From the NCBI RefSeq assembly GCF_049337375.1, contig NZ_JBMPIV010000015.1: DNA of 64,000 bases; one strand, written 5' to 3'. Made by a program: the position numbers and the translations under genes. The notes under the pieces are model-generated. The model did not search any database and was not told the origin of the DNA. It was given only the letters and a program-made list of their open reading frames with translations. Of the stretch, positions 6,601 through 56,586 are shown in pieces. The number at the start of each line of letters is the position of its first letter. The first letter of the stretch is position 1. The DNA is from Nannocystis pusilla. GTDB lineage: Bacteria; Myxococcota_A; Polyangia; Nannocystales; Nannocystaceae.

Positions 6601-7389
6601 GCGGCGGACCAGCGCGTCGGCGCGACGCCAGGCCGACACGACCAGGAGCGCCCACACGTTGAGCCCGACCGCGACCGCGAGGGCGGCTGTCCAGAAGGAC
6701 AGATCGAGCCGGACCGCCGCGGCGGCGGTGGCGACGTAGAGCAGCGCGAGGTGGGTGTCGTGGCTCAGCGGCGCCGCCATGCGCAGGGGAGGGGCCAGCA
6801 GCGAGCGGGCCGCGCCGGGAGCGGGACGGGGGCCGGTGTGCTCCGGCCCGAGCAGCGCGGCCGCGATGTCATGGAACACAGCGGGGCCGAGCCCGCGGGA
6901 CAGCGCGGCGACCGAGGGCCGCGGCGAGGGCGGCGCTGCGTCGCTGCCTCCGCCGGTCAGGTCGCGGAACCGGCGACGCAGCTCGGCGTGCAGCCCGACG
7001 TGGATCAGCGCGCTGACCAGCGCCACCGACGCGAGGGTGCAGGCCCACGGGTTGGCCGGCGCGGCTCGCAGCGTCAGCGCGACCCAGAAGGCGGCGCCGA
7101 TCGCAAACTCGAGCGTGCCGGCCTCGGCCTCCGCGGCGCCGGCGAGGAGGCGGCGACACCGGCTGGCGACGGTGAACGCGAACAACAGCCAGGCGGGGAA
7201 GATCCAGTCGACGCCGCTCGGCGCGGCCAGCAGCACGGCGACGGCGCCGGTGAGGCCGACCACGAGTCCGGCGAGGGTGAGCAGCTCGACGCTCGGCGCC
7301 GGTCGCACCCGCTCGAGGACCCACGCTGCGAGCGGCCGATGGAGGTGGCGATCGAGAGTTCCCTCGGTGATCGGATCGTCGTCGGCCAT
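6586..7389 (-). CDS. hypothetical polytopic membrane protein
   Basis: 267 aa with several hydrophobic helices. No recognised catalytic motif. Confidence 0.45.
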   Translation of the reverse strand: MADDDPITEGTLDRHLHRPLAAWVLERVRPAPSVELLTLAGLVVGLTGAVAVLLAAPSGVDWIFPAWLLFAFTVASRCRRLLAGAAEAEAGTLEFAIGAAFWVALTLRAAPANPWACTLASVALVSALIHVGLHAELRRRFRDLTGGGSDAAPPSPRPSVAALSRGLGPAVFHDIAAALLGPEHTGPRPAPGAARSLLAPPLRMAAPLSHDTHLALLYVATAAAAVRLDLSFWTAALAVAVGLNVWALLVVSAWRRADALVRRLPPA

Positions 7390-8285: not shown

Positions 8286-8338
8286 GGGGCTGTCCGATCG
8301 GCCAGGTTTATTCGGGCAGGGGCTCGGGAGCAGGTGCC

Positions 8339-8380
8339 CAGGGACATGCCCGCAAGGACATGTCCCTCAGGACAGTCGGC
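8339..8380. repeat. GGACATGTCC-family palindromic repeat array
   Basis: cagggacatgcccgcaaggacatgtccctcaggacag. Confidence 0.7.
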
Positions 8381-9695: not shown

Positions 9696-11636
9696 TCACC
9701 GCAGCAGGGCGTAGGCCGACGTCACCAGCAAATTGGCGATCGCCAGGGGCACCGCGGCCCGCTCGAGAAAGAAGAGAGCAGCGCGCGCACGCGAGCCGGT
9801 GGCCGACGCGTGCAGCCGCTGCACGAACCATACGACCGCAGCGATCTTCGCCGCCGCCACGACTGCGCCGATGAACAGCACGAGGCCGTGGCCGCTGCCG
9901 GCGAGCGCCGCCGCGGGCAAACCACCGCCAAGGAAACAGGCGACGAACGCCGCCGCGAAGGCGAGTCGTTCGAGCCGTCCTGCCGGCGGCGCGGCCGCGA
10001 CCGCGAGGGCCACTGCAGCGGCGATCGGTTGCACGAAGATTCCCCAAGAGGGAGGGATCGCAGCACCGCCGACGAGCCCCGCTGCTTGCTCCCCCACGAG
10101 CCGCCGTGGATCGAGGGTCCCAAAGGCCAGCAACGGACCGGCGAATGCGGCGGCGAGGGCGAGGTCGCGCGACGCGAGGCGGCGGGCCAGCGCAGCCCGG
10201 TCGACGAGGCGACCGAGGCCGGCGGACACGAGGGCGACGAGATAGACGAGCCAGCCTTCACCGACGGCGATCAGCGACAGCGAAGCACCGCCCCGACCCG
10301 CGGCGCACTGCTCGACGTCCGCCGCCGAGAGGCTGCTGCCGACGCCGTCGAAGCATAGGCCGGGACCGAACGGGAACAGCGCCAGGGCGGCGAGCACCGG
10401 CAGCCAGGTGGTCCAGTTCAGCCGGGTGCGACGCGTCGAAATCCACGCCAGCGCGACGAGCGCGAGCGCCAGGGCGGTGCGGATCGCCGTGCGCCGCAGA
10501 TCGCTCGCGAGGTCGGGCGGCTCCCAGCGGAGCTCGACGATCTGGGGCGCCTCTCCCGCCGCAAAAAGGAGGCGCGCGCTACCGGAGCGAGAGGCGCCGG
10601 CGCGATCGAAGTGGTCGCGGTCGACGCGGAGGCGCAGGCTCACGGCTCCGCCGGCAGCGATCTCCCGCGGGTACTCGCGGTTCTCGATCGAGAAGGCGCC
10701 CCAGTCCGGGGTGCGGGTGTCGAAGCGGATCCGGGTCAACGGCACGGGCGCCGCGCCGTGATTCACGAGCCGCAGCTCGAGACGCTCCGCCGCCGGCGTG
10801 AACACGAGGGTCCCCGGTTCGGGGCGCACGCCCGTCGGCGGCGCGCCGCAGCCGAGCGCGAGGGCGAAGAAGAGGACGCAGGGCGCGGCGGGCGAGGTCG
10901 CGGCGCGGAGGAAGTTGCGACGCGGGAGCGGCGAGCTCGCGTGCGCGACGCGGGCGAGCGGGAGCGGCGAGGCGACCGAAGTGGACAGTCGCAGCGATAC
11001 GGCCGCGAGCGAGGAGCTCGCGCTTGCCGCCAAGCTGCGAAGAAGTGGATGCGGAGACGCTACCGCGAGCGAGGAGCTCGCCAGCGTCTCGTCGACCCCG
11101 CGCATGGCCGAAGCGGACGAAGGCGGCGACGCGACCTCGGGCCGGGTGCTCGCGCTTGCATCAAAGCTGCGAGAAAGCGGGAGCGTCGAGGTGACCTGGG
11201 GCGAGGAACTGACGCGCGTGTCGTCGATCGAAGCGGACGGTCGCAACGAAGCGACCTCGGGCGAGGTGCTCGCGCTTGCCTCGAAGCTGCGGCGAAGTGG
11301 AAGCGGCGACGCGGCCTCGGGCGGGGAGCTCGCTGGCGTCTCGTCGACGACATGCATGACCGAAGCGGACGGTCGCAGCGACGCGACCTCGAGCCGGACG
11401 CTCGCCTCTTCGAGCTGGAAGCTCGCAGGTTCCTCGTCGACGCCAGGCATGGCCGACGCGAGCTCGGGCGAGGAGCTCGCACGAAGCGGCGACTCGAGCT
11501 CGCGCGACACGACGTCCGGCGCCACGCCGTCGCAGGCCCTTGCGGCCAGGTCACTCGCCGACGAGTCCACGCGCAGCGCGACGTCGCGGCTCGCCGACGC
11601 GGGCGCAGGCGAGGCGGCGGCGCGCGGGCGGATCAT
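9696..11636 (-). CDS. large membrane protein: disordered Ser/Ala/Pro-rich repeat N-terminus, one TM, Ig-like middle region, polytopic C-terminus
   Basis: Start placed at ATG 11636 (ATGA overlap with the upstream small-ORF stop) rather than 11750. Four to five ~42-aa repeats (ASLRPSAS..VDETPASS..). Confidence 0.55.
   Translation of the reverse strand: MIRPRAAASPAPASASRDVALRVDSSASDLAARACDGVAPDVVSRELESPLRASSSPELASAMPGVDEEPASFQLEEASVRLEVASLRPSASVMHVVDETPASSPPEAASPLPLRRSFEASASTSPEVASLRPSASIDDTRVSSSPQVTSTLPLSRSFDASASTRPEVASPPSSASAMRGVDETLASSSLAVASPHPLLRSLAASASSSLAAVSLRLSTSVASPLPLARVAHASSPLPRRNFLRAATSPAAPCVLFFALALGCGAPPTGVRPEPGTLVFTPAAERLELRLVNHGAAPVPLTRIRFDTRTPDWGAFSIENREYPREIAAGGAVSLRLRVDRDHFDRAGASRSGSARLLFAAGEAPQIVELRWEPPDLASDLRRTAIRTALALALVALAWISTRRTRLNWTTWLPVLAALALFPFGPGLCFDGVGSSLSAADVEQCAAGRGGASLSLIAVGEGWLVYLVALVSAGLGRLVDRAALARRLASRDLALAAAFAGPLLAFGTLDPRRLVGEQAAGLVGGAAIPPSWGIFVQPIAAAVALAVAAAPPAGRLERLAFAAAFVACFLGGGLPAAALAGSGHGLVLFIGAVVAAAKIAAVVWFVQRLHASATGSRARAALFFLERAAVPLAIANLLVTSAYALLR
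10800..11600. repeat. intragenic tandem DNA repeats (~126 bp x 4-5) encoding the S/A/P-rich repeats
   Basis: Periodic sequence on both strands (e.g. ...gaagcggacggtcgcaacgaagcgacctcgggcgaggtgctcgcgcttgcctcgaagctgcg... recurs). Confidence 0.6.
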
Positions 11637-11980
11637 GGCGCGCGGGTCAGCGAGGGCCACGCGATCGCGGTCGCCAGACCCAGCAGGCCGAGGCCGGCGG
11701 CGCTGACCCAGAGGGCAGGTCCTTCCGGACATGTCGTGCTGGACAGGCACACCGCGGCGGTCGGCGCGAACAGGACCAGGGCCAGCGCGAGCGCGAAGCC
11801 GAGGCCGGCGAGCGCGAGGAGGCCGCCGGTGTCGACGGGCTGGCGCGGGCGCAGCTGCACCAAACTCTCGCCGGTGTCGGTCGCGGCTTGCTGCCTCGCC
11901 CGGGCGCGGACCAGGCCGGCGAGGACCCCGATGAGCCCGACGGCTGCGACGAGCGGCAGGTAGTCGAGCAGGGGGCCCAT
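11633..11980 (-). CDS. small membrane protein (115 aa, 3 TM)
   Basis: ATG directly abuts the macro-domain gene stop (TAA-ATG). Its stop overlaps the downstream start (ATGA). Confidence 0.55.
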   Translation of the reverse strand: MGPLLDYLPLVAAVGLIGVLAGLVRARARQQAATDTGESLVQLRPRQPVDTGGLLALAGLGFALALALVLFAPTAAVCLSSTTCPEGPALWVSAAGLGLLGLATAIAWPSLTRAP

Positions 11981-24377: not shown

Positions 24378-24432
24378 GGGACATGTCTGTCGCGACATGT
24401 CCGCCGCGACATGTCCTTCAGGACTCGCGGAA
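24372..24432. repeat. GGACATGTCC-family palindromic repeat array (3 units)
   Basis: gagggacatgtctgtcgcgacatgtccgccgcgacatgtccttcaggac. Confidence 0.75.
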
Positions 24433-32763: not shown

Positions 32764-33325
32764 GGGGCGAAGGATGCGCGAGCGCAGGCGAGGGGCGCAA
32801 GAGGTGGGGACCGGGACGGGCGGCGCCCGCGAGCTGTCCTCGGAGACATGACCCTCCGGACTCGTGACGGGCGCGGCGCCGACCGGGCCGGGCGCGGCAG
32901 TCGTGACGGGACTTACGCGCGCTTGAAGGGGTCTTCAAGAGGATTGGGGATTTTTGTGGGGATCGATAGGTGCGGGAATTGCTTGGGAAGCCGACCGATG
33001 CGGCGTCGCTCCGGGCTGCGATTCACGGTGACGCGTCCCCGCTCGGGGATGCCCGCCGGGTGTTCGTCGCCGAGGCGGCACGCGAGCACGACGAAGACGG
33101 CGGGCGCCGCGAGGTCGAGGCTGTCCGAAGGGGCAGGTTCGGGGCGGATCGGGCTGAAGGTGCTCGGAGCGACGCGCGCCGCTCGCGGGCGGCCGAGGGC
33201 GCCGGGCTGGTGCGGGCCGTCGCTGCGCCGTCATGGGGTGACGATCGATGAGGCCGGGGGGCACCCGCGGCGCGGCGATCGACGAGTTGCGGACGGCCTC
33301 GGTGGCCGCGAGCGAGGAGAAAAGT

Positions 33326-34564
33326 ATGTGGCTTAGAACATGGTATATTGGACATGTCCTTGGGTTCATGGCTTTCATGACAGGTTGCGATCCGAAGGAC
33401 CCGGGGGTCACGGGCGGGACGCCCGGCGAGGGGACGACCACGGGTGGGACCGACAGCGACGGGACGACCGCCGGCGGCGGGAGCGACAGCGAGGGGACGA
33501 CGAGCGCGGCGGAGACGACCGAAGGACCGGACGAGACGACCGGCGGACCGGGCGACGCGACGACCGAGACGACGTCGGGAGGGCACGACACCGACTCGGG
33601 GTCGACGCCGGAAGACTTCGCGTGCGAGGGCGGAGCGTGGCTGTTCGTCGATCCGGAGACGAGCGGCGCGGGCAAGGTGTCGCTCGCGGCCGACGGGCGG
33701 GCGCGGGTGTTCAGCGACGGCCTGTCGCGCGAGTTCGACGCGGCGGGGACGCTGGTGGCGACGGTGCCGATCTCGTCGGGGGCGGCCCACTGGGACATCG
33801 ACGCCGCGGGCAACGGCTACGCGATGTTCCGCGACGAGGACGGGGTGTCGCCGCGGAAGTGGCTGCGCAAGTTCGACCCGGCCGGGGTGATGCTGTGGGA
33901 GCGCGACCTGGGGCCGCGCGATCAGGGCTACGCGTGGGGCTACGACATCGCGATCGCGGCCGACGGGACGACGGTGTACAGCGACGGCGCTGCCGTCGGC
34001 GACGGGACGCGGATGATCAAGCACGCGGCCGACGGGACGCTGCTGTGGGACCTCGAGGTCGTGGACCAACTGGAGGTGGTGGCGATCGGGGCGTCGGGAG
34101 CGATGGCGGCGCTGGTGTGGAACGAGGGGGTCCGGCTGCTCGACCCGTCCGGCGCGGAGCTGTGGACGCGCCCGTGGGAGCTCTCGGTGCTCAGCACGGC
34201 GGCGATCGACGGCGCGGGCGCGGTGGTGGTCGGGGCCCAGATCGGGTCGTCGGGGGTGAGGATCGGGAAGTTCGCGGCTGACGGGACGCCGCTGTGGGAC
34301 TCGATCGTCGAGGACATGTGGAGCTTCGGCGACGTCGCGGTCAACACAAGCGGCGAGATCGCGGTCGGCGGCCACCACAACAACGATACCCCGTTCCGCG
34401 GGATGGTGGCGCGGCTCGACCCGTCCGGCGCGACGCTGGCGGCGCACCGCTGCGACAGCGGGTCATGGGAGGTCGACGTCGCGATCGACGACGCGGGGAC
34501 GATCTTCGCGTCCGGCGCGGTCGACTTCGAGACCTATCACATGTACGTGACGGCGTACGAGTGA
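33326..34564 (+). CDS. lipoprotein with Gly/Thr-rich linker and beta-propeller-like repeats
   Basis: FMTGC lipobox. GAGGAG RBS 8 nt upstream. AT-richer start region. Confidence 0.55.
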   Translation: MWLRTWYIGHVLGFMAFMTGCDPKDPGVTGGTPGEGTTTGGTDSDGTTAGGGSDSEGTTSAAETTEGPDETTGGPGDATTETTSGGHDTDSGSTPEDFACEGGAWLFVDPETSGAGKVSLAADGRARVFSDGLSREFDAAGTLVATVPISSGAAHWDIDAAGNGYAMFRDEDGVSPRKWLRKFDPAGVMLWERDLGPRDQGYAWGYDIAIAADGTTVYSDGAAVGDGTRMIKHAADGTLLWDLEVVDQLEVVAIGASGAMAALVWNEGVRLLDPSGAELWTRPWELSVLSTAAIDGAGAVVVGAQIGSSGVRIGKFAADGTPLWDSIVEDMWSFGDVAVNTSGEIAVGGHHNNDTPFRGMVARLDPSGATLAAHRCDSGSWEVDVAIDDAGTIFASGAVDFETYHMYVTAYE

Positions 34565-36433: not shown

Positions 36434-36701
36434 GTGCGCCAGAGTAGCACCGCGGCCCGCGGGCGCAGGGGGTTGAACCAGGCCCCGGAGGCGCAGGGGA
36501 CAAGGCGACGTCGCGGGGATGCGCGCGTGAGGTTGGCGAGAGGGCGCGACGCCGATGGGCAGGCTCAGGCGTGAGGCGCACGTGTCGGGGGCGCGCAGGT
36601 TAGGCTGGTTGAAAGGACAGGACCTCGAGGACAGGACCTCAGGGACATGGCCGAGGTGAGGCGCCGGCCAGGGCTCGCGTGAGGCTGGTCGAAGAGACAG
36701 G

Positions 36702-52452: not shown

Positions 52453-53030
52453 AGGTGGTAGTCCTTGAACAGGTAGGCGTAGAAGCCGACGACTTCGCGC
52501 AGCAGCGACCACGGCTCGCGCAGCTCGAGATCGAGGTCGGCGTGCGCGCCGGTGGCCTCGACGCCGAAGCGGCGCAGCGCCAGCTTGGTGCGGGTGACGT
52601 GGTAGTACTGGCTGACGGCGATGGCGGAGCGTTCGCCGCGGGCGCGCAGGTCGGCGGCGACGAAGCGGGCGGTGGCGTGGGTGTTGACGCCGCCGCGGTC
52701 GACGGCGATCCGCTCGACCGGGACGCCGCGGGCGACCAGGTAGTCGCGCATGACGTCGGCCTCGTGCGGGCTGCCGGGATCCTGGCCGCCGCTGACGATG
52801 AGGCGCGGGGCGAGGCCGGCGGCGTACAGGGCAGCGGCGCGGTCGAGCCGCAGCTGGAGGCGGCGCGAGGGCTCACCGGCGGGGCTGACGTGATTGCCGA
52901 GGACGACCGCGACGTCGGCGGGGCGGTCCTCGTCGGTGCAGCCGTCGACGGCGATGACGAGCAGGTGGACGAGGCCCCAGACGCACAGGAGGGCGAGCAG
53001 GCGGAGGATGTACTTTCGCACCTGGCGCAT
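52428..53030 (-). CDS. DUF218/YdcF (SanA/ElyC) family protein
   Basis: VAVVLGNHVSPAGEPS...IVSGG pattern with an N-terminal TM. Confidence 0.65.
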   Translation of the reverse strand: MRQVRKYILRLLALLCVWGLVHLLVIAVDGCTDEDRPADVAVVLGNHVSPAGEPSRRLQLRLDRAAALYAAGLAPRLIVSGGQDPGSPHEADVMRDYLVARGVPVERIAVDRGGVNTHATARFVAADLRARGERSAIAVSQYYHVTRTKLALRRFGVEATGAHADLDLELREPWSLLREVVGFYAYLFKDYHLDREDMSG

Positions 53031-53041
53031 GGGACCTGTCC

Positions 53042-54067
53042 TCAAGGACCTGTGATTTCGCCGGCCGGCGGGCGCACGGGCAGGCAGTCGAGCCGGGCGG
53101 TCTCGGGGTCGTAGCGGAAGGTTTCGTGGCGGGCCAGGAGGCGGCGCGCGTAGGCGTGCAGGCGCTCGGGTCGCATCGATCGCCACGCGACGCCGGCGGC
53201 GCCGGTGGTGTCGAACAGGCGCACGCGGCCGAGGCGATCGCGGGCGGGGTCGACGATCATCATGTGATGGTACATGCGCTCGCCGCCGCGGGCGCGGGCC
53301 CGGTGCGAGACGCTGCAGAGGTGGAGCGCGTCGGGGACGAGGGCGGCGATCAGGGCGTCGGGGTCGAGCTCGGCGAGGCGCAGGTCGAGCAGCTCGAGGC
53401 CGCGCGGGAGGGCGTCGGCGGGCAGGCGGGCCGCTATCTGCAGGAGGGCGGCGCGGCCGGCGTGGGCGCCGTCCTGGCACGACTCGAAGCCGCCGGGCGG
53501 GTCGCAGGGCACGAGGTCGGCGAGCTCGAGCCGCGGCAACCACAGCAGGCGGACGCCCTCGAGGAAGCCGCCCAGGCAGCCGAGGTCGTATGTCCCCGGG
53601 GACAGCTGCACGGGGCGGCCGGCGTCGGTGCGGCAGAAGCCGGCGGGTTCGTCGAGGCGGATGTGGCCGAGGCGCTCCCAGGCGTCGATCTCGGCCCAGC
53701 GATCGGGTTCGAAGGCGAGCTCGAGGCCGCGGAAGATCGCGGCAGGTTCGCGCGCGCGCAGGCCCGCGGCGAGCACCTGCGGGACGCGGGGGTAGTGCGC
53801 GAGCGAGGGCCAGCGCGCCAGGAGGTCGAGGTCGCGGGCGCCGACCGGCTCGCGGTGGACGGTCGGGCGAGGCGCCGGCGAGGTCCCGCGCGTGAGGTCG
53901 AGGTCGGGGCGGCCGTGCGGATCGAGGTGACCGATCGGGCGCGGGGCGGCGGGCGAGGTCGGGGCGGTCGCGTCCTCTTCGGGCGCAGCAGCGGGCGCCG
54001 GCTCCCCGCAGGCGAGCGCGGCCACCAGGCCAGCCGTGAGCACCCGAGGGTCGCGCACGGGAGGCAT
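53042..54067 (-). CDS. lipoprotein, hypothetical
   Basis: LAC lipobox. Confidence 0.45.
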   Translation of the reverse strand: MPPVRDPRVLTAGLVAALACGEPAPAAAPEEDATAPTSPAAPRPIGHLDPHGRPDLDLTRGTSPAPRPTVHREPVGARDLDLLARWPSLAHYPRVPQVLAAGLRAREPAAIFRGLELAFEPDRWAEIDAWERLGHIRLDEPAGFCRTDAGRPVQLSPGTYDLGCLGGFLEGVRLLWLPRLELADLVPCDPPGGFESCQDGAHAGRAALLQIAARLPADALPRGLELLDLRLAELDPDALIAALVPDALHLCSVSHRARARGGERMYHHMMIVDPARDRLGRVRLFDTTGAAGVAWRSMRPERLHAYARRLLARHETFRYDPETARLDCLPVRPPAGEITGP

Positions 54068-54249
54068 CTAACCGCAGCGAGCGGCCTTCGTCGAGGTGCC
54101 GGCGGGACGGGTGGCCAGGAGCGTTGGCTTGCTTGGAGCCGCGCGAGCAAGTGAGCCCCGCCGCCGAGGCCGAAGCGACGCAGGCGGTCGAACGCGCGGA
54201 CCGAGGAGCTGCCTGCGGCGGCGACCCGAAGTCGCGTCACGGAAGTCCG

Positions 54250-54480
54250 ACGAGCGCCGCGCCGGCGCTCGCTGGGCGGGGGCCATGAGCTGTCGCCCTC
54301 ACTGCCCTCGAGGACATGTTTAAGAGGACATGCTCGGTGGAGCATGCCCTCTTAGAAATGTCGGAAACCGCGCCGGCGCTCGCTGGGCGGGGGCTATGAG
54401 CTGTCGCTCTCACTGCCCTCGAGGACATGTTTAAGAGGACATGCTCGATGGTGCATGTCCTTTAAAAAATGTTTGAACGG
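54250..54480. repeat. ~110-bp tandem direct duplication (2 copies, ~93% identical), each carrying GGACATG-type palindrome units
   Basis: ccgcgccggcgctcgctgggcgggggc[c/t]atgagctgtcgc[c/t]ctcactgccctcgaggacatgtttaagaggacatgctcg[g/a]tgg[a/t]gcatg[c/t]cc... Confidence 0.85.
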
Positions 54481-54501
54481 ACAGGGCCGGAGGGCCAGGT
54501 G

Positions 54502-56586
54502 TCAATGCGAGGCGGCGATCACGGTGAGCGTGCGGCGCATGACCAGAGTGGTCCAGGTGTCGGTCAGCGGCAGGGCAGGGATCGTGACGCTGCCGTCGGG
54601 GCCAGCGACCACCTCGCCGTGGTCCTGGCCGAACGACCAGGCGACGCGCTCGCCGGGGCGGCAGCGGAAGGCCTGGGTGCGGCGCGGGGTCACGTCGACG
54701 AACGCGGGCAGCTCGGCCATCACCCGGTCGCCCTCGCTCGGGTAGCCGGGCGCGGGCGGGTCGGCGCCGTCGCCGGCGTGGACGCGCAGGGCGAATTGCA
54801 GGCGATCGACGGTGTCGACCACCGAGGCGCCGTCCCAGCGGAGGAACCGGCCGAGCGCGCCGGCGATGGCGCCGTCCCAGCCGGTGTCGCCGGCGATGGC
54901 GACCTCGCCGGCGAAGCCCGCGTTGGCGCTCCAGTCCTGCTTGCCGTTGCCGACGCCGACGCCGGGGTCGTCGTCGAGCGAGGAGTACGAGAAGGCGGGG
55001 AACGCCCGGTCGCGGCGCAGCGTGGCCTCGTCGCCGCTGATCGGCGCCCACGAGCCGGTCCACCAGCTGTCCCCGAGGACAGGATCGGCGACGCCGTGGC
55101 CGCCCTCGTCCCAGATGGCGAAGTGGCCGACGCCGCGGCTCTGCAGCGCCTGATAAAAGCTCTCGCCGGTGCGCGGGCTCGGCAGGACGGTGGCCCCGAA
55201 GTGGATGGTCGGGTCGTCCTTGCCGTGCTTGAGGAACAGGAACTGGTCGCGGGCCTCGCTCGACTCGGCGAGGGCGCGCGTCAGGTCCATGTGATCCCAC
55301 GCCGACAGGCCGCCGCCGCCGTCGAGGTCGAGCTCCGGCGCGCCCCACCAGCCGGACAGCTGGGTGATCCGCGACGGCCGGTGGTTGCGCGCGATCGCCT
55401 GACCGAGGCGCGCGTCGATGTACGCGAAGTGACGCCCGCGCAGGAGGCCGAGCAGCATCGCCCCGGCGCCGCCCATCGAGCTGCCGTAGACGTAGACGCG
55501 CTGCGGGTCGGCCTCGGGGTGGTGGCGCAGGACGTACTCGACGAGGTGGAGCACGCGGCGCATGGTGTAGTCGGGCGCGGCGCCGCCGGCCGCGGGCTCG
55601 ACGTCGGGCAGCGAATCCGCGTAGCCCCACCAGTAGGTGTTGTCCGGGTCATGCGGCGAGATCCGGATCTCGTTGGCCGAGCCGGTGCCGCCGGGGTTGG
55701 CGGTGGCGAAGCCGTGCAGGCCGATCCGCACCGGCACGCCCTCGGACGGGGCCTCGAGCGGGACCATGACCTTGGCGACGAACTCGCGGCCGGCGTAGCC
55801 CGGGCTGTCGAGGTACTCATCTGTCTTTTGGGACAGGGTGTAACGGACATATCCGCTGGCGTCGAGGAACTCGGTGTCGACGACCTCGGGCCACGGCGGC
55901 TGGATGGTGTCGCGGACGACGACGTCGAAGGTGGCCTCGACGCGCGACTCGTGGTCGTGGGCGAGCACGGTGACGGTCCAGCGATCGCCGCCCTGGGTGA
56001 AGTCGGGGGTGAAGCGGAAGGTGCGGGTCGGCTCGTCCCAGGTGGCGCCCGGCGGCAGGCCGAGCACGTGGACGCGCAGGGCCGCGGGCTCGGCGACGTC
56101 GACGACGTCGACGACGAGGCCGACCTCGGTGTCCTCGTCGACCCCGACCTCGGCGGGGACGAGGATCCGCGGGGCCGAGCGCTCGACGGCGAGGGTCAGC
56201 GGGCGCGACTCCTCGTCGTCGCGGCGGACCAGCACCTCGTAGTCGCCGCGCTTGCGCGGGCCGCTGTGGGCGTGCAGCTCGCCGCCCGAGACGAAGGTGG
56301 TCGGCAGCTCCTGGCCGGCGACGACGACGACGCTGGAGCGCGTGAAGCCGGCGCCGGTGACGTGGAGGTCGAAGGCGACGCCGCCGGGCGCCGGGTCGGG
56401 CGAGAGCGCGTCGAGCTCGAGCGGCGCGAGCTGGGGGCCGCCCAGCGGGCCCTCGCTGACGGGCGGGCGCGTCGGCGGCGTCTGCTCGTCAGGGATGGCG
56501 CCCGAGAAGCCGCTGTAACAGCCGGCGAGGGCGAGCCACGTGACCGTGAGGCACGCGCGCGAGACCAGGCCAGAGCAGGACAACAT
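54502..56586 (-). CDS. secreted lipoprotein esterase (alpha/beta hydrolase, PHB-depolymerase-like) with N-terminal Ig-like domains
   Basis: Lipobox LALAGC. VYVYGSSMGGAGAM (GxSxG motif). Confidence 0.65.
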   Translation of the reverse strand: MLSCSGLVSRACLTVTWLALAGCYSGFSGAIPDEQTPPTRPPVSEGPLGGPQLAPLELDALSPDPAPGGVAFDLHVTGAGFTRSSVVVVAGQELPTTFVSGGELHAHSGPRKRGDYEVLVRRDDEESRPLTLAVERSAPRILVPAEVGVDEDTEVGLVVDVVDVAEPAALRVHVLGLPPGATWDEPTRTFRFTPDFTQGGDRWTVTVLAHDHESRVEATFDVVVRDTIQPPWPEVVDTEFLDASGYVRYTLSQKTDEYLDSPGYAGREFVAKVMVPLEAPSEGVPVRIGLHGFATANPGGTGSANEIRISPHDPDNTYWWGYADSLPDVEPAAGGAAPDYTMRRVLHLVEYVLRHHPEADPQRVYVYGSSMGGAGAMLLGLLRGRHFAYIDARLGQAIARNHRPSRITQLSGWWGAPELDLDGGGGLSAWDHMDLTRALAESSEARDQFLFLKHGKDDPTIHFGATVLPSPRTGESFYQALQSRGVGHFAIWDEGGHGVADPVLGDSWWTGSWAPISGDEATLRRDRAFPAFSYSSLDDDPGVGVGNGKQDWSANAGFAGEVAIAGDTGWDGAIAGALGRFLRWDGASVVDTVDRLQFALRVHAGDGADPPAPGYPSEGDRVMAELPAFVDVTPRRTQAFRCRPGERVAWSFGQDHGEVVAGPDGSVTIPALPLTDTWTTLVMRRTLTVIAASH

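Follow-up and report, generated by a model that had tools for sequence, protein, structure and literature searches.

What has been repeated in the intergenic DNA at positions 54250–54480 of this stretch of Nannocystis pusilla DNA, and how did the repeat arise? A sequence-only reading of the 64-kb window (the whole stretch analyzed here, 64,000 nucleotides) had proposed a recent tandem duplication of a unit of ~110 bp, built from palindromes of a dispersed family that amplifies locally in MITE/REP-like fashion. The best reading of the locus, to which we assign a probability of roughly 55%, is a REP/BIME-like hairpin module located at the end of a transcription unit and duplicated by local replication slippage.

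Genomic context of the repeat

The repeat sits in a 434-bp spacer between two minus-strand genes, delineated by GC3 statistics and a codon-model gene caller that finds no coding signal in the spacer itself. The landmarks outside the repeat are as follows.

54502–56586, minus strand: alpha/beta hydrolase (prolyl-oligopeptidase-like), 694 aa, the upstream gene, from the gene call; stop codon at 54502–54504
54068–54256, minus strand: unduplicated remainder of the spacer, with the conserved leader of the downstream gene, from alignment with the syntenic loci L001 and L002
53042–54067, minus strand: downstream gene, an ORF for a protein of ~340 aa with a GC3 of 0.92 and a start conserved in L001 and L002

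The hydrolase has a weak Peptidase_S9 match and is 98% identical to protein P0001, from a Logan contig, and 91% identical to a protein of N. punicea, both 694 aa long. The downstream protein has no Pfam match and no record by exact-protein look-up; its N-terminus, ending ...AALAC, looks like a putative lipoprotein signal peptide. The block CACCTCGACGAA.GCCGCTCGCTGCGGTTAG-ATG before this gene is conserved in the window, L001 and L002, whereas outside this leader block the unduplicated spacer is only about 80% identical to L001. At the orthologous locus in L109 and L111, where the hydrolase is 79% identical, the putative lipoprotein gene is missing; in L109, the next gene lies within 18 nt of the hydrolase gene, and no palindrome array of the kind described below follows the hydrolase.

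Consensus scans of positions 53900–54700 found no sigma-70 promoter and no terminator. A search of the whole window against Rfam gave no match at gathering score, and on the spacer at E ≤ 1 it returned only spurious mir-4659 matches (a miRNA-precursor hairpin) at 25–29 bits versus a gathering score of 92. CsrA-type GGA motifs, Shine-Dalgarno sequences and small ORFs were considered for the repeat and dropped because the arrays are palindromic, lie at 3′ ends and lack a coding signal.

Two head-to-tail copies of a 111-bp unit

The tandem duplication is real. Positions 54257–54478 consist of two head-to-tail copies of 111 bp that differ at 11 of 111 positions in an ungapped comparison (54257–54367 versus 54368–54478), with four mismatches in the first 90 nt and seven in the last 21 nt. 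The ~7 differences counted earlier were therefore an undercount, and the unit of ~110 bp measures 111 bp. Tandem Repeats Finder reports 54257–54472 with a period of 111, 1.9 copies, 92% matches and a score of 376, and a second repeat search returns two 110-nt copies, 54257–54366 and 54368–54477, at 91% identity. The locus thus has the structure of a tandem duplication or VNTR, namely 1.9–2.0 head-to-tail copies of a single unit at 90–92% identity. Its features, none of which is assigned to a strand, are listed below.

54368–54478: copy 2 of the 111-bp duplication, adjoining the hydrolase stop codon (period 111; its columns are gapped in the L001 alignment)
54257–54367: copy 1, more distal to the hydrolase gene (period 111; 11/111 mismatches to copy 2)
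54257–54308: GC-rich, non-palindromic half of copy 1, 79% GC; its counterpart in copy 2 is 54368–54419, 75% GC
54312–54363: array 1, four phased 14-bp units forming one long hairpin, defined by CATG phasing, hairpin arms and RNA fold
54423–54502: array 2, six phased units, with the phasing read from the sequence
54251–54271: GC hairpin CGAGCGCC-GCGCC-GGCGCTCG, read from the sequence; GCGCCGGCGC is also listed as an inverted repeat

Each copy joins a 52-bp GC-rich half (75–79% GC) to a 59-bp AT-richer half (49% and 41% GC in copies 1 and 2). The GC-rich halves contain no array units except for one weak match, and the GC-rich half is strongly diverged, with indels, from its L001 counterpart. The AT-richness that had drawn attention to the locus is genuine, as no 50-nt stretch of the window has a lower GC content than one in the AT-richer half of copy 2 (38% versus 72% overall). 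The string quoted in the sequence-only reading is also present in both copies, as gaggacatgtttaagaggacatgctcg[G/A]tgg[A/T]gcatg[C/T]cc.

The AT-richer halves carry the arrays. Array 1 consists of GGACATGTTT at 54312, GGACATGCTC at 54326, GAGCATGCCC at 54340 and AGAAATGTCG at 54354, where the second and third units are complementary to each other rather than self-palindromic. The resulting hairpin has 23-nt arms (54313–54335 and 54340–54362) that are 87% complementary and enclose a 4-nt loop. An A-T pair in L001 (AAAAGG/CCTTTT) corresponds to a G-C pair in copy 1 (AAGAGG/CCTCTT), a double change that speaks for a hairpin. The copy 2 hairpin has 20-nt arms (54425–54444 and 54453–54472) with 85% complementarity. 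The six units of array 2 start at 54423, 54437, 54451, 54465, 54479 and 54493; the last two, GGACAGGGCC at 54479 and GGCCAGGTGT at 54493, lie outside the duplication and are degenerate, and the first base of the hydrolase stop codon is part of the final unit. RNA folds of the region on both strands give z = −7.8 and −6.8 relative to shuffled sequence.

The proximal breakpoint of the duplication falls between two phased units, and the distal boundary, 54256/54257, falls within the left arm of the GC hairpin at 54251–54271. We infer that this hairpin took part in the duplication. No microhomology is seen at the junctions in the window sequence or the L001 alignment.

Age of the duplication

Syntenic loci in relatives were retrieved via the hydrolase protein. 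L001, whose hydrolase is 98% identical in protein sequence, has a single copy of the module versus two in the window. The copy number, whose comparison with related strains had been suggested, thus varies among related genomes, the comparison resting on this single close relative. Window and L001 differ by 1.9% in the DNA of the hydrolase gene (4.2% at third codon positions), by 6.1% in the downstream gene and by about 20% in the unduplicated spacer (54068–54256 versus L001 4700–4886). Either intergenic DNA outpaces synonymous sites here by a wide margin or GC3 is under strong constraint.

The single L001 unit is 17–20% diverged from either window copy (80–83% identity). Because the window copies are only 10% apart, they are each other's closest relatives, and the most parsimonious reading of the alignment is that the duplication arose in the lineage of the window once this had separated from L001. 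With one close relative compared, loss of a second copy in L001 is formally conceivable as an alternative to gain in the window's lineage. The duplication earns the term recent in that it postdates the divergence from a very close relative, but not in the sense of fresh copies, which already differ by ~10%.

The suspicion that the spacer is evolving actively holds up well. Orthologous spacers measure 434, 310, 453 and 245 bp, and the N. punicea spacer contains its own, unrelated 100-bp × 2.0 duplication. The orthologous spacer of L112, a more distant relative, contains repeated GGACATG-containing modules.

A palindrome family with a strict 14-bp period

Both arrays are built from units of one family, in which the 10-bp palindrome GGACATGTCC recurs with a period of exactly 14 bp; this is equivalent to TGTCC-N4-GGACA hairpins joined via CATG. 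With one mismatch or fewer, GGACATGTCC occurs 24 times in the window versus 1.7 expected, and 23 CATG pairs in the window are 14 nt apart, compared to 0–3 at other distances. CATG-CATG distances peak sharply at 14, 28 and 42 nt. The family was further characterized in an 893-kb sample that comprises the window and 829 kb of Nannocystis loci from roughly a dozen genomes of 11–13 Mb. The 14-nt CATG spacing occurs 337 times in this sample versus 3–44 times at other non-multiple distances. Outside seeded doublets, 186 of 304 good units have a neighbor at exactly ±14, while any other offset from 8 to 21 has 0–3. Offset 14 accounts for 401 intergenic unit pairs and offset 28, twice the period, for 141; the other offsets from 11 to 17, and offset 21, give 2–6. 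A sequence logo over the 893 kb confines the information to GGA-CATG-TCC, with about 0 bits in the 4-nt spacer.

Perfect doublets, GGACATGTCC-N4-GGACATGTCC, were found at 103 loci in 185,579 species genomes, 100 of which belong to Nannocystis species, a Nannocystaceae MAG or one Myxococcales MAG. The remaining three fit the ~1 chance match estimated for 20 specified bases. The array family is largely confined to Nannocystis and close relatives, and the dispersed palindrome family proposed earlier from the window alone is borne out by its excess of units, its phasing and these doublets. No description of the family was found in the literature searched, the coverage of which is incomplete and leaves newness unproven.

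Units can occupy a spacer completely. The 40-bp convergent spacer at 24378–24417 is exactly filled by three units, and the 95-bp co-directional spacer at 8286–8380 is made wholly of seven phased units. At 53030–53044, a minus-strand unit (GGACAGGTCC) occupies all of the 11 nt that separate the stop codon of the downstream gene from the start of a DUF218 gene; with its GAGGA 8 nt ahead of the ATG, this unit may double as a Shine-Dalgarno sequence.

Arrays mark the ends of transcription units

The location of array 2, which reaches into the hydrolase stop codon, is typical of the family. Among 291 intergenic arrays, 169 start no more than 40 nt past a stop codon, and eight are found within 40 nt of a start codon. 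Within a distance of 50 nt, 34% of 3′ ends of genes have an array, versus 2.5% of 5′ ends; at loci not selected for arrays, the corresponding counts are 29/101 and 7/100. Arrays occupy 77% of convergent, 28% of co-directional (tandem) and 17% of divergent spacers, and among co-directional spacers their frequency is 5% below 30 bp versus 41% above 200 bp. Database gene calls for L001 and L002, which were made independently, agree with this 3′-end location.

The window, L001, L002, L003 and L112 share arrays at orthologous gene ends, although the sequence of these arrays and their unit number turn over. The conserved positions follow the kinase, hydrolase and downstream genes and include the convergent spacer before the cyclase gene; no array lies inside the cyclase operon in the orthologous loci compared. 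This conservation indicates that the arrays, which lie where transcription units end, have been passed down vertically and are not new insertions. One of the few 5′-end arrays is found at 33311–33367, abutting the start of a plus-strand gene at 33368. This array of 4–5 phased units, AGTATGTGGC TTAG AACATGGTAT ATTG GACATGTCCT ..., is the second-lowest-GC stretch of the window (40–42% GC) and could be a promoter or leader element.

The piece duplicated downstream of the hydrolase is the module consisting of the phased array after the stop codon and the adjoining 52-bp GC-rich segment. When single-stranded, such arrays are predicted to fold into hairpins on either strand, most plausibly in the 3′ UTR of a transcript. 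By analogy with enterobacterial REP/BIME elements, the hairpins may act as direction-independent 3′-end elements, through termination or by stabilizing the transcript as a barrier to 3′ exonucleases. The duplication probably occurred when replication slipped or switched templates in a spacer rich in hairpins. The hydrolase gene is now followed by two consecutive hairpin modules, probably with neutral or nearly neutral consequences.

Arrays share several properties with bidirectional intrinsic terminators: a stable hairpin directly downstream of the stop codon (at this locus with 20–23-nt arms), enrichment in convergent spacers, absence from the inside of operons, and flanks that are weakly A-rich on the 5′ side and weakly T-rich on the 3′ side (AAGGACATGTCCTT). 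They differ from intrinsic terminators in having several phased units instead of one stem, a stem sequence conserved over thousands of sites, and no U-tract. In 145 oriented arrays, T reaches a frequency of at most 0.39 over the first three positions 3′ of the array (+1 to +3) and is at background further out, and the terminator scan of the hydrolase locus gave 0 hits.

Pairing across the spacer and what may read it

If the arrays work as hairpins, complementarity should be visible where units depart from the consensus. Watson-Crick pairing of non-consensus bases between positions 8–10 of one unit and positions 1–3 of the next, across the 4-nt spacer, is found in 62 cells versus 35.6 ± 5.1 in shuffled data; outer, intra-unit and direct-repeat relations depart little from expectation. 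This covariation points to CATGTCC-N4-GGACATG as the apparent structural unit and supports hairpins. Other signs of selection on RNA are lacking. Neither the flanks nor the spacer 4-mers show asymmetry on the sense strand, and sense-strand G·T mismatches do not significantly exceed A·C mismatches (38 versus 31 and 91 versus 76). As a selected RNA structure normally shows a G·T excess, its lack counts against selection at the RNA level. The 4-nt spacers were also considered as UUCG/GNRA tetraloops on the sense strand, a proposal discarded given that spacer 4-mers are diverse and each is about as frequent as its reverse complement.

Two further features sit uneasily with hairpins. Asymmetric cores (CCTG/CAGG) in adjacent units have the same orientation in 14 cases and complementary orientations in two, the arrangement of a direct repeat and not of hairpin partners, which does not fit a pure hairpin model. 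Asymmetric-core variants (GGACAGGACC, GGACCTGTCC) occur as direct repeats at 36613–36652 in the window, at 2982–3162 in L049 and at 6873–7114 in L090. In addition, a plain hairpin would require neither strict 14-bp phasing nor conservation of the stem sequence. The constraint on the arrays looks symmetric, which is equally compatible with a role for both transcripts, with a factor that recognizes the sequence, and with quasipalindrome correction at the DNA level that keeps the pairing.

These features lend weight to a possible, though clearly less probable, alternative in which the arrays are double-stranded DNA sites for a genus-specific dimeric protein that recognizes TGTCC-N4-GGACA or GGACA/TGTCC. 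Cooperative filling of abutting 14-bp sites at gene ends would create a roadblock terminator, an insulator or a topology/nucleoid factor, and the duplication would double the sites. A conserved 10-bp palindrome with information-free spacers, the exact phasing, complete strand symmetry even downstream of co-directional genes, the lack of G·U bias, the direct-repeat CCTG variants and the restriction to one genus are all expected of such sites. A known parallel is the met-boxes of MetJ, tandem palindromic operator arrays for a cooperative repressor that lie in the promoters of one regulon. Like met-boxes, the Nannocystis arrays consist of abutting palindromic boxes in 2–6 repeats, with a fixed period and little information between half-sites. 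Unlike met-boxes, they lie at gene 3′ ends, follow about a third of genes, and have adjacent half-sites that covary. Independent half-sites should not covary, yet complementarity is kept across the spacer with a z of about 5. A DNA-bound factor also has no obvious need for arrays to start 0–20 nt after a stop codon, and no candidate protein was found.

At somewhat longer odds still, and only tentatively, Nannocystis may mark the ends of its transcription units with a strictly phased sequence code, TGTCC-N4-GGACA every 14 bp, read by a putative dedicated factor on double-stranded DNA or hairpin RNA. The arrays would then be genus-specific factor-dependent terminators or insulators and not passive REP-like DNA.

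Spacer duplications and the question of mobility

The hairpin module reading attributes the second copy to a local event, and duplications of this kind recur in Nannocystis spacers. The 893-kb sample contains 29 intergenic tandem repeats with periods of 40–150 bp. Ten carry a phased array, versus 3.3 ± 1.7 for size-matched random intergenic segments, a count to be read with the caveat that several share a locus and are not fully independent; the other 19 are array-free. Arrays are therefore about three-fold over-represented in spacer duplications, yet not required for them, an enrichment that fits hairpin-rich spacers prone to slippage or template switching and not transposition-like spread. 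The sequence-only reading was right that array-bearing DNA amplifies locally, but its MITE/REP-like amplification, taken as a process of the transposition type, is not supported: the unit amplified at the hydrolase locus is an array plus 52 bp of unrelated GC-rich spacer, occurs at no other locus in the DNA searched, and lacks terminal inverted repeats and a target-site duplication, and most spacer duplications contain no array. 

Other spacer duplications include a 122-bp unit present 2.0 times at 100% identity in N. exedens (L073 5323–5567), a 143-bp unit present 4.3 times with two arrays per unit in N. punicea (L002 1852–2445), and a 151-bp unit present 3.3 times in N. pusilla (L025 3115–3610) that has an apparent in-frame TGA stop just before the array. 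Within the window, a 120/60-bp tandem repeat of 1.8–3.5 copies and 65–78% matches lies inside the minus-strand gene 9696–11660, at 11109–11327, and presumably encodes a repeated protein motif.

Compared to ordinary slippage VNTRs and minisatellites, the hydrolase locus is similar in its two head-to-tail copies, in a copy number that varies between close relatives and in the separate N. punicea duplication of the orthologous spacer. It differs in that the breakpoints lack microhomology and the unit carries a hairpin array of the over-represented kind.

The closest known counterparts of the arrays are enterobacterial REP/BIME elements, including BIME-2, and Pseudomonas REPINs. REPs have units of 20–40 bp, several spacer classes and a conserved GTAG-type flanking tetranucleotide recognized by a transposase; a cognate RAYT (Y1 transposase) gene, usually flanked by REPs, is present in the genome. 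Like these elements, the arrays are short imperfect palindromes with a taxon-specific consensus and stem-loop potential on either strand. They are extragenic and clustered, lie mainly downstream of genes or in convergent spacers, and their clusters vary in copy number between strains by tandem amplification. Unlike them, the Nannocystis units are 10 bp long at a rigid 14-bp period, with no GTAG-like flank and no strand asymmetry, and reach a high density of about 30% of gene ends. No RAYT turned up either: a tblastn search with E. coli RayT gave a best E of 0.44 in the 893 kb, a low-powered search, as the sample is a small fraction of roughly a dozen 11–13-Mb genomes.

We consider it unlikely that the arrays are selfish REP/REPIN-type elements, spread or homogenized by RAYT, an IS200/IS605-type single-strand transposase or gene conversion and tolerated at gene ends, with the duplication as a BIME-2-like expansion. 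In favor of this explanation are a dispersed consensus that is specific to a species group and found at about one in three gene ends, hairpin potential with Watson-Crick-only covariation, copy-number variation between close relatives and the enrichment of arrays in tandem duplications. Its difficulties are the units of 10–14 bp versus the 20–40 bp of REPs, the missing tetranucleotide, the negative but low-powered RayT search, the conserved orthologous positions, which point to vertical descent and not to new insertions, and the strict phasing, which it leaves unexplained.

Although a long inverted repeat lies within the 111-bp unit, two insertions of a MITE or another mobile element are very improbable, and so is an assembly artifact: the copies are exactly head-to-tail and 10% divergent, which speaks against an artifact, no terminal inverted repeats or target-site duplication flank the unit, and no dispersed full-length copies exist in the DNA searched, the whole unit being absent elsewhere in the 64-kb window, its 22-mer GGACATGTTTAAGAGGACATGC having 0 matches in the 185,579 species genomes (one genome per species) and the degenerate 26-mer AGGACATGCTCNNNGGNGCATGNCCT 0 matches in JGI metagenomes. 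The occurrence of the unit at no other locus thus marks it as a local duplication and not a dispersed element.

Significance

On its own, the duplication is minor and probably neutral, and it shows the rapid turnover of Nannocystis spacers. We rate the duplication itself as ordinary and the phased 3′-end array family as the noteworthy part, a variant of the REP/BIME or terminator-hairpin theme with a molecular function that we infer. Arrays follow roughly a third of stop codons and occupy three quarters of convergent spacers in a genus with 11–13-Mb genomes of 72% GC. If a dedicated factor reads them as a code, tandem duplications of the module would tune the strength of termination or insulation. 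If the arrays are bound by a protein or maintained by a transposase, they would represent the REP/BIME theme in a new form outside the Gammaproteobacteria. If they are transcript-end signals, they would improve the annotation of operons and terminators in a group that is intensively mined for natural products and would provide compact bidirectional terminator parts.
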